From an uncultured Parachlamydiaceae bacterium (lineage in GTDB: Bacteria > Chlamydiota > Chlamydiia > Chlamydiales > Parachlamydiaceae), in NCBI GenBank assembly GCA_963742415.1, contig CAVULX010000004.1, positions 960,001 to 1,024,000 of the forward strand: 64,000 nucleotides of DNA. Reading direction: 5' to 3'. Each line of letters opens with the position of its first letter. The stretch's first letter is position 1. Below the pieces are notes generated by a model that searched no databases, was not told where the DNA came from, and was given only the letters and a program-made list of their open reading frames with translations. The position numbers and the translations under genes were made by a program. Below are positions 4,573 to 10,087 of this stretch, piece by piece.

Positions 4573-5775
4573 TCATTCAAAATTAATTTCTAGAATTGAA
4601 ACATCATCAACAAATGGTCCTGGACCATTCAGTTCTTTAACAAATTGGAGAATTTCTTCGAGGTTATCTTTTTTTGTTAAAGAGAGTGTGAATAAAAAGT
4701 CTGTAAATTCTTTAAGCGGCAAGGTGGTTCCATCAGGGCGGGCTATTTCATATACTCCATCGCTAAAGACAAACAATTTAGAATATTGTTTAAGGGTGCA
4801 TTTTTGACTGTGAAATTTTGCTCCTTCCATGCCCCCAACCACCAAATCTTTGGTCGTTAATTCATGAGCTGTAAATTTAGACTGATTTTTGCCTGTCATA
4901 AAAATTGCAGGGGGATGCCCTCCGCTGGCATAGACAATTTCTTTTTTAGCCACATCATAGACGCCATACCACATCGTAAAAAACATATTGTTATGCTGTT
5001 CCATTGGGAAAGTCACATTCAATGCTCCGAGCACAGAAGAGGGATCTAAGAAATCAACATTTGGAAGGGATTGGGCGCGTAGAACGTTCATGACAGAAAT
5101 GGACAATACAGCAGCACCAACCCCGTGGCCGCATACATCTAACAAATAAATGCAAAAATGGTTGGGATCGACCCAATGATAGCCGAATGCATCACCACCT
5201 AGTTGTGTGGAAGGGATAAAGCGCCAATAAGCCGAGACTCCCCTCACCGCCTTATCAGAAGGGATAGGAGCTGGCAAAAGGCTTGTCACGTAGGCCGCGG
5301 CTTCCATCAATTCTTTGTTTAAAATCTGTTGGCTTTCGTTCAATTTTTCGTAAGCTTCGTTTCTTTGCAAAAGGCGGATGTAGCTGGAAGAGTGATACCG
5401 GATTCTCGCTATAAGCTCGATTTTGTCAGGGAGTTTGACCATGTAATCGTTCGCGCCTAAAGCAAAAGCTTCAGCTTTAATCTTTGGTTCCTCTTTTGTT
5501 GATAAAACAATCAGGGGAATGTCTTTGGTGCCTGCATTAGCTCGGTAGTATTTGACTAAGAGAAGCCCATCGATATCGGGCATAACTAGATCTTGAAGAA
5601 TGACGGTAGGTTGGACTTCAGCAGCTTTTTGAAGTGCTTTGGAAGGATCATTGCAATAGTAAAAGTCAATGTCGGATTGATTGGCCAGCATTTTTTGCAC
5701 GGCTTCGGCAATGATGGCTTGATCATCCACTAGCAACACCTTGACTTTAAAATCTTGCATCTGAGGAAATGTCAT
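4573..5775 (-). CDS. WspR-like receiver fused to PP2C/SpoIIE (RsbU-type) phosphatase
   Basis: REC VLLVDDQ...ILQDLVMPDIDG...ANDYMVKLPDKIELIARIRYHS; phosphatase motifs LGGDAF, LDVCGHGVGAA, SGGHPP, FSDGVYE, DDVSIL. Confidence 0.9.
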   Translation of the reverse strand: MTFPQMQDFKVKVLLVDDQAIIAEAVQKMLANQSDIDFYYCNDPSKALQKAAEVQPTVILQDLVMPDIDGLLLVKYYRANAGTKDIPLIVLSTKEEPKIKAEAFALGANDYMVKLPDKIELIARIRYHSSSYIRLLQRNEAYEKLNESQQILNKELMEAAAYVTSLLPAPIPSDKAVRGVSAYWRFIPSTQLGGDAFGYHWVDPNHFCIYLLDVCGHGVGAAVLSISVMNVLRAQSLPNVDFLDPSSVLGALNVTFPMEQHNNMFFTMWYGVYDVAKKEIVYASGGHPPAIFMTGKNQSKFTAHELTTKDLVVGGMEGAKFHSQKCTLKQYSKLFVFSDGVYEIARPDGTTLPLKEFTDFLFTLSLTKKDNLEEILQFVKELNGPGPFVDDVSILEINFE

Positions 5776-6815
5776 ATTTCTCTCCTATCTTTGATAAAAA
5801 AGAAATCGAGTATAGATTTGCTGATATCCTCTAATGGCAGCACTTCACTGGCGGCATTCAATTCTATAGCAGCTTTTGGCATTCCATACACAACGCATGT
5901 GCTTTCATGTTCTACAATGGTATGCCAGCCGGCATCTTTTAATTTTTTTAAACCTGCCGCTCCATCACTTCCCATCCCTGTAAGGAGAACGGCCACAGAC
6001 TTTTTTGGCCAAAACTGAGCGACGCTAGAAAAAAAGACATCCACCGATGGGCGATAGGGGTTTTCTAAAGGCTGTTCATTGTAATATAATGTCTGCTTTT
6101 CATTTAGTTCTAAGTGGTCATTCCTTCCCGCAACATAAATGATCCCGGGAGACAATGCCATCCCATGAGTGACCACCTGGATAGGATGGGATGTCCTGGC
6201 ATGAAGCCATCGGGCAAATCCTGGCACAAACTCGGCATCCACATGCTGAATGATGACTGTCGAGAAGGGCATTTTTTTCGGAAATTTTTCTATGATTTTC
6301 GCCAGAGCCTTAGGCCCCCCTGTTGATGAGCCTATGACAAGCAGAGGGGGAATATCAACTCTTTCTTTTTCAGAATAGTATCCATCAGATTTCTGTTCTT
6401 CTTTGGTTAAATGCCGGCTTTTGCCAAAAAGAAGGCCTATCCGATCAATTTTTTTTAAAAGCTCTTCCCCTCCTAAATCCTCTCTGCTTATATCCAATGC
6501 GGGCGTTTTGATGACATCGAGAGCGCCATACCCCATCGCTTCAAATACCTGAGAAGAATTTTTAGCTACACTGGCGGTGACAATGAGAATGGCGCAAGGA
6601 TAATCTTTCATAATGCGACGGGTTGCCTCAGCCCCTCCCATTTGGGGCATGATGAGATCCATGAGGATCAGATCGGGAGTTTCTATCGCACATTTTTCAA
6701 CCGCCTCGCTTCCATCGTATGCCACCCATACCACGCGATGATTTGAAGAGGATTCGATCATCCTTTTTAAGGCTTCTACTGCTAGTTTAATATCATTGAC
6801 AATGCCGATTTTCAT
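5772..6815 (-). CDS. cheB: Chemotaxis methylesterase CheB (WspF-like)
   Basis: REC MKIGIVNDIKLAVEALK; catalytic motifs IGSSTGGP, IIQHVD, LTGMGSDGA; YRPSVD. Confidence 0.95.
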   Translation of the reverse strand: MKIGIVNDIKLAVEALKRMIESSSNHRVVWVAYDGSEAVEKCAIETPDLILMDLIMPQMGGAEATRRIMKDYPCAILIVTASVAKNSSQVFEAMGYGALDVIKTPALDISREDLGGEELLKKIDRIGLLFGKSRHLTKEEQKSDGYYSEKERVDIPPLLVIGSSTGGPKALAKIIEKFPKKMPFSTVIIQHVDAEFVPGFARWLHARTSHPIQVVTHGMALSPGIIYVAGRNDHLELNEKQTLYYNEQPLENPYRPSVDVFFSSVAQFWPKKSVAVLLTGMGSDGAAGLKKLKDAGWHTIVEHESTCVVYGMPKAAIELNAASEVLPLEDISKSILDFFFIKDRREI

Positions 6816-9509: not shown

Positions 9510-10087
9510 AGCCTCCTTTTAAGATTTGCAAATAAAAGTTCCTCGTCGATATACCCGACATTCCTATCATTCCAAATAAGAATTCCTTTAAAAAAATTGG
9601 CGGCTGACTTGGCCACGGTTGAAGGTACATTTTGAAGCAGCTGTTTATCGTAATGGTAAACCCCATAGATTTCATCCACAGGAAAAACCCAGGTATCTTT
9701 CTCTTTTTTTATCGCCATCATCCGCCGGTAAAAACGGTGGGTATGCACATCTTCAAAAGGGGCAGGTAAAGCTTCAATTTCAAGCAAATTATTTAATGAA
9801 AATGAAAGCCTTAGCTGTCCCCGGAGATTAACAACCCCTGTCACCACTTTTCCACTGAAATGGGGAAGTTTGTGGATTCTTCTCTCTGGGGCGACTTCAT
9901 CAAACACGAGAGTGGAAAGAGCTAGCCATTCCCGGTATAAACGAAAGATGACAATGGAATCTTTTTCTTCTATAACCTCAGAATCTTGCGGAATTTGTAA
10001 AAGGGCTGTCCATTCGGCCAGATATTCAGGGTCAGGGGGGCGGTTAAGAAGTTCATTGGCTGAATTAGCTTCTTGTTTACCTTGCAT
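9506..10087 (-). CDS. cheW: CheW-like scaffold (WspD-like)
   Basis: LLNRPPDPEYLAEWT, IVIFRLYREWLAL, IHKLPH, GVVNLRGQL, FPVDEIYGV; overlaps cheA start by 4 nt. Confidence 0.9.
   Translation of the reverse strand: MQGKQEANSANELLNRPPDPEYLAEWTALLQIPQDSEVIEEKDSIVIFRLYREWLALSTLVFDEVAPERRIHKLPHFSGKVVTGVVNLRGQLRLSFSLNNLLEIEALPAPFEDVHTHRFYRRMMAIKKEKDTWVFPVDEIYGVYHYDKQLLQNVPSTVAKSAANFFKGILIWNDRNVGYIDEELLFANLKRRL

Follow-up and report, generated by a model that had tools for sequence, protein, structure and literature searches.

A Wsp-type chemosensory operon with a receiver-phosphatase regulator in an uncultured Parachlamydiaceae bacterium

We describe a chemosensory operon from an uncultured Parachlamydiaceae bacterium (GenBank assembly GCA_963742415.1). 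It occupies positions 4573-10087 of a 64,000-nucleotide stretch of contig CAVULX010000004.1, hereafter the window (C4:960001-1024000; the assembly has 2.69 Mb in 4 contigs and a marker completeness of 84%). The operon encodes a coupling protein, a hybrid CheA kinase and a CheB methylesterase, followed by an output regulator in which a receiver is joined by a helical stalk to a PP2C phosphatase of the SpoIIE/RsbU type. We cautiously favour the reading that this locus is the kinase and output half of a Wsp-type pathway of the alternative cellular functions (ACF) class in a non-flagellated environmental chlamydia, and that the anti-anti-sigma protein RsbV would be the most likely substrate of the phosphatase.

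The Wsp pathway of Pseudomonas (WspA-F and WspR) is the model pathway of the ACF class, which is used here in the scheme of Wuichet and Zhulin as cited in PMC3447774 and PMC5604735. Its gene order is the same in clusters orthologous to the window operon, and likewise, except for the receptor, in the closest relative found (genome G215). The locus shares with Wsp a CheA with a C-terminal receiver (WspE), a CheR fused to tetratricopeptide repeats (TPR; WspC), a WspR-type receiver and stalk, and a genome in which no flagellar target was found. It differs from Wsp in that the output is a PP2C phosphatase and not a GGDEF cyclase (a search of the genome found no GGDEF protein) and in that the operon is divided, with the receptor encoded apart from it. 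In the receiver-stalk tree the window receiver also falls outside the clade that holds full-length WspR homologues.

In a 2012 survey CheR-TPR genes lie in ACF-type clusters, whose regulators have kinase, GGDEF, EAL, cyclase or protein phosphatase outputs (PMC3447774). The survey lists a "REC - Ser/Thr Phosphatase" for Methylococcus capsulatus and Desulfovibrio salexigens, and 7 receptors and one CheR-TPR for Parachlamydia acanthamoebae (Tables S1/S2). Going by the tabulated architectures, these clusters are of the same kind as the window operon and have the same regulator architecture. The survey is a catalogue, and the parts of it cited here name no function, substrate or chlamydial output. 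Complete che sets have been described in several non-flagellated chlamydiae, and a role in regulating "yet unknown cellular functions" was proposed for them (PMC5604735). Phosphatase-output regulators of ACF clusters have thus been catalogued already, and no study of any member's function was found. A literature search returned no experimental work on a Wsp-type pathway whose output is a PP2C domain and no statement of the chlamydial output, in agreement with a preliminary description of this DNA that knew of no characterisation of the output link.

CrsR of Shewanella oneidensis also carries a receiver and a phosphatase. The che1 cluster of this species with CrsR/CrsA is a chemosensory cluster tied to a STAS/anti-sigma switch that controls RpoS; it is one example of the F7-class clusters, those of 'stage 1-2' among them, that include STAS genes together with serine-phosphatase or anti-sigma genes (PMC9855816, PMC7184735). 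In these accounts the CrsR system belongs to F7 and is not ACF/Wsp-like, and CrsR has an anti-sigma domain. CrsR is not known to have a WspR-type stalk.

Two further systems resemble the regulator itself. Pseudomonas aeruginosa RssB (3eq2, 3f7a, 3es2) has the same layout of receiver, helical linker and PP2C domain and is the best whole-chain match among solved structures in both sequence and fold. It is only about 25% identical, the window protein scores 111 against an NCBIfam cut-off of 700, and RssB lies outside chemosensory operons. The RsbU-RsbV-RsbW switch of Bacillus subtilis and the Rsb network of Chlamydia trachomatis share the phosphatase family (PF07228), and genes for a small STAS protein and an RsbW-like kinase are present in the window's genome. 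Such genes adjoin a regulator orthologue in six non-chlamydial loci and one chlamydial locus. RsbU has an RsbT-binding domain as its input, whereas here the input would be a receiver fed by a chemosensory kinase; the input of chlamydial RsbU is a periplasmic sensor.

The operon and its output regulator

The genes of the operon are as follows.

9506-10087, minus strand: cheW, WspD-like coupling protein, 193 amino acids (Pfam CheW, 48.5 bits; position as in the orthologous clusters)
6816-9509, minus strand: cheA-receiver hybrid kinase, WspE-like, 897 amino acids (Pfam Hpt 164-251, HATPase_c 479-616, CheW 622-750, Response_reg 778-890)
5772-6815, minus strand: cheB methylesterase, WspF-like, 347 amino acids (Pfam Response_reg and CheB_methylest; NCBIfam PRK12555, 432 bits, cut-off 342)
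4573-5775, minus strand: output regulator, 400 amino acids, with receiver, helical stalk and PP2C domain of the SpoIIE/RsbU type (Pfam, structure search, AlphaFold2 model)

These four open reading frames (ORFs) lie head to tail, with overlaps of 4 nucleotides at the first and last junctions and a zero gap at the middle one. The CheA is 55% identical to that of the closest relative across residues 10-897. The preliminary description had reported contiguous or overlapping wspD-, wspE- and wspF-like genes followed by a regulator, and both its coordinates and its account of the genes agree with the ORF layout, Pfam and NCBIfam.

A full-length KdpD-like sensor kinase gene (1923-4556, minus strand) begins 16 nucleotides past the phosphatase gene. 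It may be co-transcribed with the phosphatase, given this spacing and the shared strand. It is followed by no KdpE-like gene, the next gene encodes a Macro-domain protein (828-1826, minus strand).

The regulator has three parts.

5425-5745, minus strand: receiver, residues ~11-117, phospho-acceptor D62 (Pfam Response_reg, residues 13-126, 67.6 bits)
5278-5424, minus strand: stalk, residues 118-166, joining receiver helix 5 to the phosphatase (a single continuous helix by DSSP on the model)
4576-5277, minus strand: PP2C (PPM) phosphatase domain, residues 167-400 (Pfam SpoIIE, PF07228, residues 204-398, 116.4 bits)

The SpoIIE match is well above its cut-off of 25 bits and spans positions 2-190 of the 192-position profile; Pfam finds no GGDEF domain in the regulator, SpoIIE stands in its place. 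In a search of solved structures, residues 8-153 align without gaps to P. aeruginosa WspR (3bre, E=6e-56, 193 bits), with 94 of 146 residues identical (64%, counted by hand from the alignment). WspR of Pseudomonas syringae (3i5a) follows at 1e-54, P. aeruginosa RssB (3eq2) matches residues 11-356 at E=1.7e-27, and the next matches confined to the receiver score about 50 bits. The close likeness of receiver and stalk to Pseudomonas WspR and the complete PP2C/SpoIIE output with its aspartate motifs, both put forward in the preliminary description, are therefore upheld.

Residues expected to be functional are invariant in 24 aligned orthologues. In the receiver these are D17, D18, D62, S92 and K114, and in the PP2C domain D195, D213, G216-H217-G218, D339-G340 and D390-D391. 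We take the metal-binding aspartate motifs to be GGD (D195), DVCGHG (D213 and G216-H217-G218) and SDG (D339 and G340), plus D390 and D391. Because these key residues do not vary in the alignment, both the receiver and the PP2C half of the regulator look functional.

The AlphaFold2 model of the regulator, built from a 24-row alignment, has a mean predicted local distance difference test (pLDDT) score of 85.7, and helix 118-166 runs into the phosphatase. A Foldseek search with the whole chain places P. aeruginosa RssB structures in the top four positions (best 3f7a, E=5.6e-28), followed by WspR (3bre, 3i5a). The phosphatase domain alone matches SiaA-PP2C, Rv1364c, RsbX and SpoIIE, and its nearest solved relative is P. 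aeruginosa RssB 3es2 (E=1.2e-13).

These RssB matches, which include the best full-length ones by NCBIfam, by sequence search of structures and by fold, raise the possibility that the regulator is an RssB-like adaptor or scaffold. Its PP2C fold would then bind rather than catalyse; once phosphorylated, the protein might for example hand over a sigma factor or a regulator, or keep it from acting. NCBIfam holds no equivalog for the regulator, the RssB_Pseudo model (NF045505) gives 111.3 bits, far under its cut-off of 700, and NF007969 gives 53.5 against 329. The invariant active-site motifs and the end-to-end coverage of the SpoIIE profile argue against a binding role, and the inactive RssB of Escherichia coli is described as having a truncated domain in the part of PMC12143880 cited here. 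We regard an adaptor as the least probable of the alternatives, and very improbable in itself.

Orthologous clusters and the receiver-stalk family

Relatives of the regulator are abundant. In a search of 5.8 billion proteins, 7995 of the 8000 scored candidates match at E<=1e-10. The best 120 protein matches all combine a receiver with SpoIIE and share 58-70% identity with the query along 97-100% of its length. Among contigs from one genome per species, at least 567 of the 605 matched stretches encode a relative. By their titles, the best 80 orthologous loci belong to Chlamydiota (17), Planctomycetota (11), Thermodesulfobacteriota (11), Acidobacteriota (10), Lentisphaerota (6) and six further phyla.

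Gene order was compared in these 80 loci, in 79 of which the regulator gene could be called (L055 was left out). The scan covered genes on the same strand up to 7 genes upstream of the regulator, and some contigs end early. CheA is found in 55 of the 79 loci, CheW in 50, CheR in 46, CheB in 44 and methyl-accepting chemotaxis proteins (MCPs) in 34; all five component types are found in 27 and none in 19. The usual order is receptor, CheW of 150 amino acids, CheR of ~410-440 amino acids, CheW, CheA, CheB and regulator, the small gene between MCP and CheR being CheW. This is the wspABCDEF order with the phosphatase in the position of wspR, and full-length orthologues at 50-70% identity close such clusters in at least 11 phyla.

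Judged by its sequence relatives, the regulator is a member of an old and widespread orthologous family and no chlamydial invention. An origin specific to chlamydiae was considered and is ruled out by orthologues at 50-61% identity in Planctomycetota, Thermodesulfobacteriota, Acidobacteriota, Lentisphaerota and others. The idea of a Wsp pathway rewired to a phosphatase thus keeps its first half, a Wsp-like architecture with a PP2C output, and loses its second, a rewiring particular to chlamydiae.

Variants of the cluster are seen among the relatives. The cheA gene is fragmented in one locus (L014), cheB is missing from others and the regulator stands alone in L025, L032 and L041. The fragmented cheA, in the closest public metagenome-assembled genome locus, consists of four consecutive pieces of 453, 138, 131 and 95 amino acids, which could be a pseudogene or the product of long-read frameshift errors. 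Clusters of Thermodesulfobacteriota carry tandem regulators after cheB, a receiver-class III cyclase and a receiver-PP2C protein (L027:7409-8908, L029:6630-8117). In the second of these an Apyc1-like gene of the metallo-beta-lactamase fold lies between the two regulators (L029:8122-8910).

Within the phylum the regulator was counted in 400 scored genomes at E<=1e-60, and it is present in 44. It occurs in 18 of the 45 genomes of the window's own family and in 5/5, 5/5, 4/5 and 2/2 genomes of four other families; at this threshold none was found in families of 69, 90, 35, 29 and 23 genomes. A CheA match is found in 52 genomes, including all 44 with the regulator, a co-occurrence that holds even where the two lie on different contigs; the genomes are related, so no statistical test is attached to it. 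The 8 genomes with CheA only have distant CheAs, at ~28-39% identity. GGDEF domains (PF00990) were counted over 401 genomes and occur in 132 of them, in 7 of the 45 of this family and in 8 of the 44 that carry the regulator. The absence of GGDEF as a chlamydial trait was therefore rejected. No PF00990 match was found in the window's genome, at its completeness of 84%.

The receiver-stalk segment is shared with other outputs. Residues 1-160 were searched against 1.84 billion cluster representatives, and 449 proteins match at E<=1e-30. A Pfam scan was applied to 92 of the best 150 (36 shorter than 300 amino acids and 22 longer than 700 were left out). Histidine-kinase modules are the commonest partner (37), followed by GGDEF (14), SpoIIE (10), class III cyclase (9) and HD_5 of the HD-GYP type (4). 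PAS, GAF and TIR occur once each, and 15 proteins have no second domain at E<=1e-10. By these domain assignments the WspR-type receiver-stalk is an input module with many interchangeable outputs. One receiver-stalk on GGDEF, cyclase, HD-GYP, histidine-kinase and PP2C outputs illustrates the idea of an "exchangeable coiled-coil linker" advanced in the cited part of PMC12143880.

A tree was built from 103 receiver-stalk segments, with CheA and CheB receivers as the outgroup; four labelled rows scoring below 150 bits were dropped. The window regulator groups, with weak support, with 12 full-length orthologues and 2 other PP2C representatives (Shimodaira-Hasegawa-like approximate likelihood ratio test 80). 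P0174 and P0196, full-length WspR homologues with E values of about 1e-126 to 3bre, fall in a clade (95) that does not include the window protein. Output labels are interspersed, with 48 changes against a minimum of 11, and 61 of the 100 inner branches are unresolved. The free tree scatters the PP2C-linked rows, and a tree constrained to keep all 23 in one group is not rejected by an approximately unbiased test (p=0.331). Nesting of the receiver inside the WspR clade, set beforehand as a test of the Wsp connection, is thus unsupported by the tree, at a resolution that leaves 61 of the 100 inner branches open. In the narrow sense the receiver groups outside WspR, and in the wide sense it belongs to the same receiver-stalk family.

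The divided operon and its other components

The remaining parts of the pathway are found elsewhere in the window's genome. Only the wspD-E-F-R half lies in the window; cheW and the TPR-bearing cheR lie 590 kb away. This CheR (408 amino acids, TPR at residues 341-395 by Pfam) is encoded with the second CheW at C4:374 kb. One CheA was found in the genome, and stand-alone CheW genes number 2. Three MCP matches were found, none of them linked to the che operon. One of these receptors lies in the window.

42649-44727, plus strand: chemoreceptor with HAMP and MCP signalling domains, 692 amino acids (Pfam); candidate input receptor, unlinked to the operon

The C-terminal part of this chemoreceptor scores ~170-325 bits against the receptors that head orthologous clusters. 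Searches of the genome for FliM and flagellin gave no match (they did not extend to type IV pilus genes), and none of its 8 receiver-bearing ORFs is a single-domain CheY. A multidomain regulator, a CheR-TPR and the absence of detected flagellar genes fit the ACF class, judged by these gene features.

In the closest relative, whose regulator is 69% identical, an ORF of 80 amino acids, CheW, CheR, CheW, CheA, CheB and the regulator are contiguous. In the window's genome the same small ORF (78 amino acids), CheW and CheR stand alone. A transposase gene adjoins the window's cheW, exactly where the relative has cheW-cheR.

10190-12481, minus strand: ISAs1-like transposase ORF, 763 amino acids (NCBIfam transpos_ISAs1, 122.8 bits, cut-off 70; Pfam DDE_Tnp_1_assoc)

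The first ~430 residues of this ORF are of low complexity (rich in P, S, Q and N) and the transposase forms its C-terminus. A repeated insertion sequence was considered and rejected, the gene is present in a single copy. From the contiguous operon of the relative, the separate CheW-CheR of the window's genome and the ISAs1-like gene at the break we conclude that the operon was split by rearrangement.

A split operon with an ISAs1-like gene at the break and with receptors and CheR unlinked could also be the decaying remains, without a present role, of an ACF system gained by horizontal transfer, or its regulator could be a mere phosphate sink for CheA. The relatives with a broken cheA, with no cheB or with a lone regulator are in keeping with such decay, as is the retention of the regulator by so few genomes of the phylum. 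Against it, none of the four ORFs is disrupted and they lie close together, every component of the pathway is still encoded in the genome, and CheA accompanies the regulator in every genome that has one, even across contigs. The functional residues are invariant, and a sink would need no conserved catalytic domain of 230 residues. We give decay or a sink only a slim chance.

The candidate substrate RsbV

Studied PF07228 phosphatases act on phosphorylated STAS proteins (this is general knowledge, also stated in the cited part of PMC9239204). Environmental chlamydiae keep RsbV2, RsbW and RsbU2 and have lost RsbU, RsbV and sigma-28, according to the portion of PMC4652624 used here. The candidate substrate is encoded in the window.

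55693-56046, minus strand: rsbV, single-domain STAS anti-anti-sigma protein, 117 amino acids (Pfam STAS, 75.6 bits)

Pfam confirms the STAS gene that had been reported here, and its product is the only single-domain STAS protein found in the genome. Its S62 is invariant in 35 sequences. An RsbW-like kinase of 157 amino acids is encoded at C3:957.8 kb.

Genes downstream of the regulator link some orthologous clusters to partner switches. Among 70 same-strand ORFs from 47 loci, a STAS gene and a small HATPase_c_2 kinase gene directly follow the regulator in six loci (L016, L020, L037, L040, L077 and L079). In L066 the following gene encodes a STAS protein with no kinase, and in L068 a STAS-TCAD9 fusion and a STAS protein are encoded there. 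In one chlamydial genome (G300) the orthologue is abutted by a HATPase_c_2-STAS pair in convergent orientation. When the cluster-linked STAS proteins are compared with the window's genome, their best match is the window RsbV (E ~1e-20, against 1e-7 for fused STAS domains).

The PP2C domain (residues 150-400) was co-folded with RsbV in three runs, alongside three controls. The score is 0.62 in all three runs, and the best of the 3 controls reaches 0.00; 116 of 157 solved complexes and 2 of 215 mismatched pairs reach 0.62. At least 95% of contacts are shared between the runs, and the partner has a pLDDT of 87. RsbV residues 62-63 and 65-66 lie against residues 215-216 in the DVCGHG loop of the phosphatase, which would place the conserved serine at the active site.

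From these components a pathway can be proposed. The unlinked receptors, including the one at 42649-44727, and the two CheW proteins would control the hybrid CheA; the distant CheR-TPR (590 kb from the operon) and the operon's own CheB would provide adaptation. CheA would very probably pass its phosphate to D62 of the regulator receiver. Phosphorylation would probably then set the dimeric coiled coil of the 49-residue stalk and switch the PP2C domain on, by analogy with RsbU and linker-coupled PPM phosphatases. Dimerisation through a coiled-coil linker has been proposed for PPM phosphatases with receiver, PAS, GAF or HAMP inputs, in the part of PMC12143880 cited above. For the last step we put the chances at about even: the active PP2C domain may remove the phosphate that an RsbW-type kinase places on S62 of RsbV, and free RsbV would capture RsbW and change sigma-factor availability. 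An intact RsbU-type phosphatase at the end of a che operon would give the chlamydial che genes a concrete wiring, from receptor array to CheA, receiver-PP2C and RsbV/RsbW.

A broader and more tentative proposal is that the chemoreceptor array is a main sensory input to the remaining RsbV2-RsbW switch of environmental chlamydiae, which are reported to lack the canonical RsbU and RsbV1 through loss, setting sigma availability and developmental timing through a Wsp-type CheA and the receiver-PP2C protein. We consider this possible but doubtful. If true, it would answer what the long-puzzling chlamydial che genes do, and a machine that adapts by methylation would time development in a non-motile obligate intracellular bacterium.

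Several observations weigh against the pathway drawn to RsbV. The operon is split and its receptors are unlinked, and scans for operon promoters and terminators found no excess of sites over chance (24 and 19, with 21.4 and 14.4 expected). CheB is present in 5 of the 15 chlamydia-titled loci, which could mean decay. A STAS gene lies directly downstream of the regulator in only 8 of the 79 loci, none titled chlamydial, and the one chlamydial locus with an adjacent STAS gene (in G300) has the most divergent orthologue, at 40% identity. The rsbV gene is 50 kb from the operon, among housekeeping genes (miaA, ssb). The co-fold may pass because the pair resembles solved PP2C/STAS-type structures, and since cousins of a true partner pass too, it does not single out RsbV among STAS domains. 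Orthologues of RsbV are present in 111 of the 150 genomes counted for the order, those of the regulator in 44 of 400 for the phylum; RsbV therefore does not depend on the che-linked phosphatase, which can be only one accessory input. Other candidate phosphatases and STAS domains also exist in the genome.

Among these is a fusion of 681 amino acids (receiver-PP2C-HATPase_c_2-STAS; G000 C3:646662-648707, L094:208-2253), which has a strong PP2C match and lies beside Bac_transf and NTP_transferase genes. It combines all parts of a partner switch in a single chain, much as Rv1364c does, with a receiver added, and homologous ORFs of ~680-710 amino acids are found in sister genomes. Near it a WecG-STAS-STAS glycosyltransferase of 504 amino acids is encoded (C3 ~650.9-652.5 kb, L012:274-1788). 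An ORF of 812 amino acids has weak PP2C-like matches (E=0.0016 and 0.009). With this ORF and the fusion present, the che-linked regulator cannot be claimed as the sole RsbU-like phosphatase of the genome.

Two further phosphatases were noted. A fusion of a Hanks-type protein kinase with a SpoIIE-type PP2C domain (531 amino acids) is encoded at G000 C4:1085997-1087592 (L007:475-2070), and ORFs of similar size are found across the family. A paralogous receiver-PP2C protein of 411 amino acids, with SpoIIE scores of 185-193 bits and a weak receiver score, is found in same-family genomes without the che-linked regulator (L134:3410-4645 in G138, L135:2588-3823 in G089); in G138 it lies beside a GAF histidine kinase of 954 amino acids.

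The 681-amino-acid fusion, the 812-amino-acid ORF, the 411-amino-acid paralogues and the spread of RsbV together suggest that receiver-fed PP2C proteins are the usual RsbU substitutes in the window's family, and that the che-linked one is an accessory input. Coupling of the output to RsbV, as first suggested, is thus plausible from the linked STAS and kinase genes and the co-fold; the binding is a predicted one, and the phosphatase would be an accessory input at most.

The phosphatase might instead act on another substrate, such as the WecG-STAS-STAS protein, the 681-amino-acid fusion or a target of a Hanks-type kinase. Its output would then be envelope remodelling in place of sigma-factor control, which is closer to that of Wsp through cyclic di-GMP; the first two candidates would tie a STAS domain to envelope or polysaccharide synthesis. 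The genome encodes the WecG-STAS-STAS protein, the fusion beside sugar-transferase genes and the Pkinase-PP2C protein, 71 of the 79 loci are without a STAS gene directly downstream, and where STAS is linked it is fused in L068 and followed by a glutaminase gene in L066. The linked STAS proteins match the window RsbV far better than any fused STAS, however, six linked loci have the classical pair of a small STAS protein and a small RsbW-like kinase, and the co-fold with RsbV passed (RsbV being the one STAS partner folded). We hold a different substrate to be unlikely, and RsbV stays the preferred one.

Three other loci of the window were noted. At 15497-16109 (plus strand) an ORF of 92 amino acids overlaps a PemK/MazF-like toxin gene (104.4 bits), likely a type II toxin-antitoxin pair. 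A Vps62 domain (56 bits) is encoded at 16231-17289 (plus strand) and an SMI1/KNR4 SUKH-1 domain (38.5 bits) at 34036-34842 (minus strand), both are of eukaryote-associated or polymorphic-toxin-immunity type.

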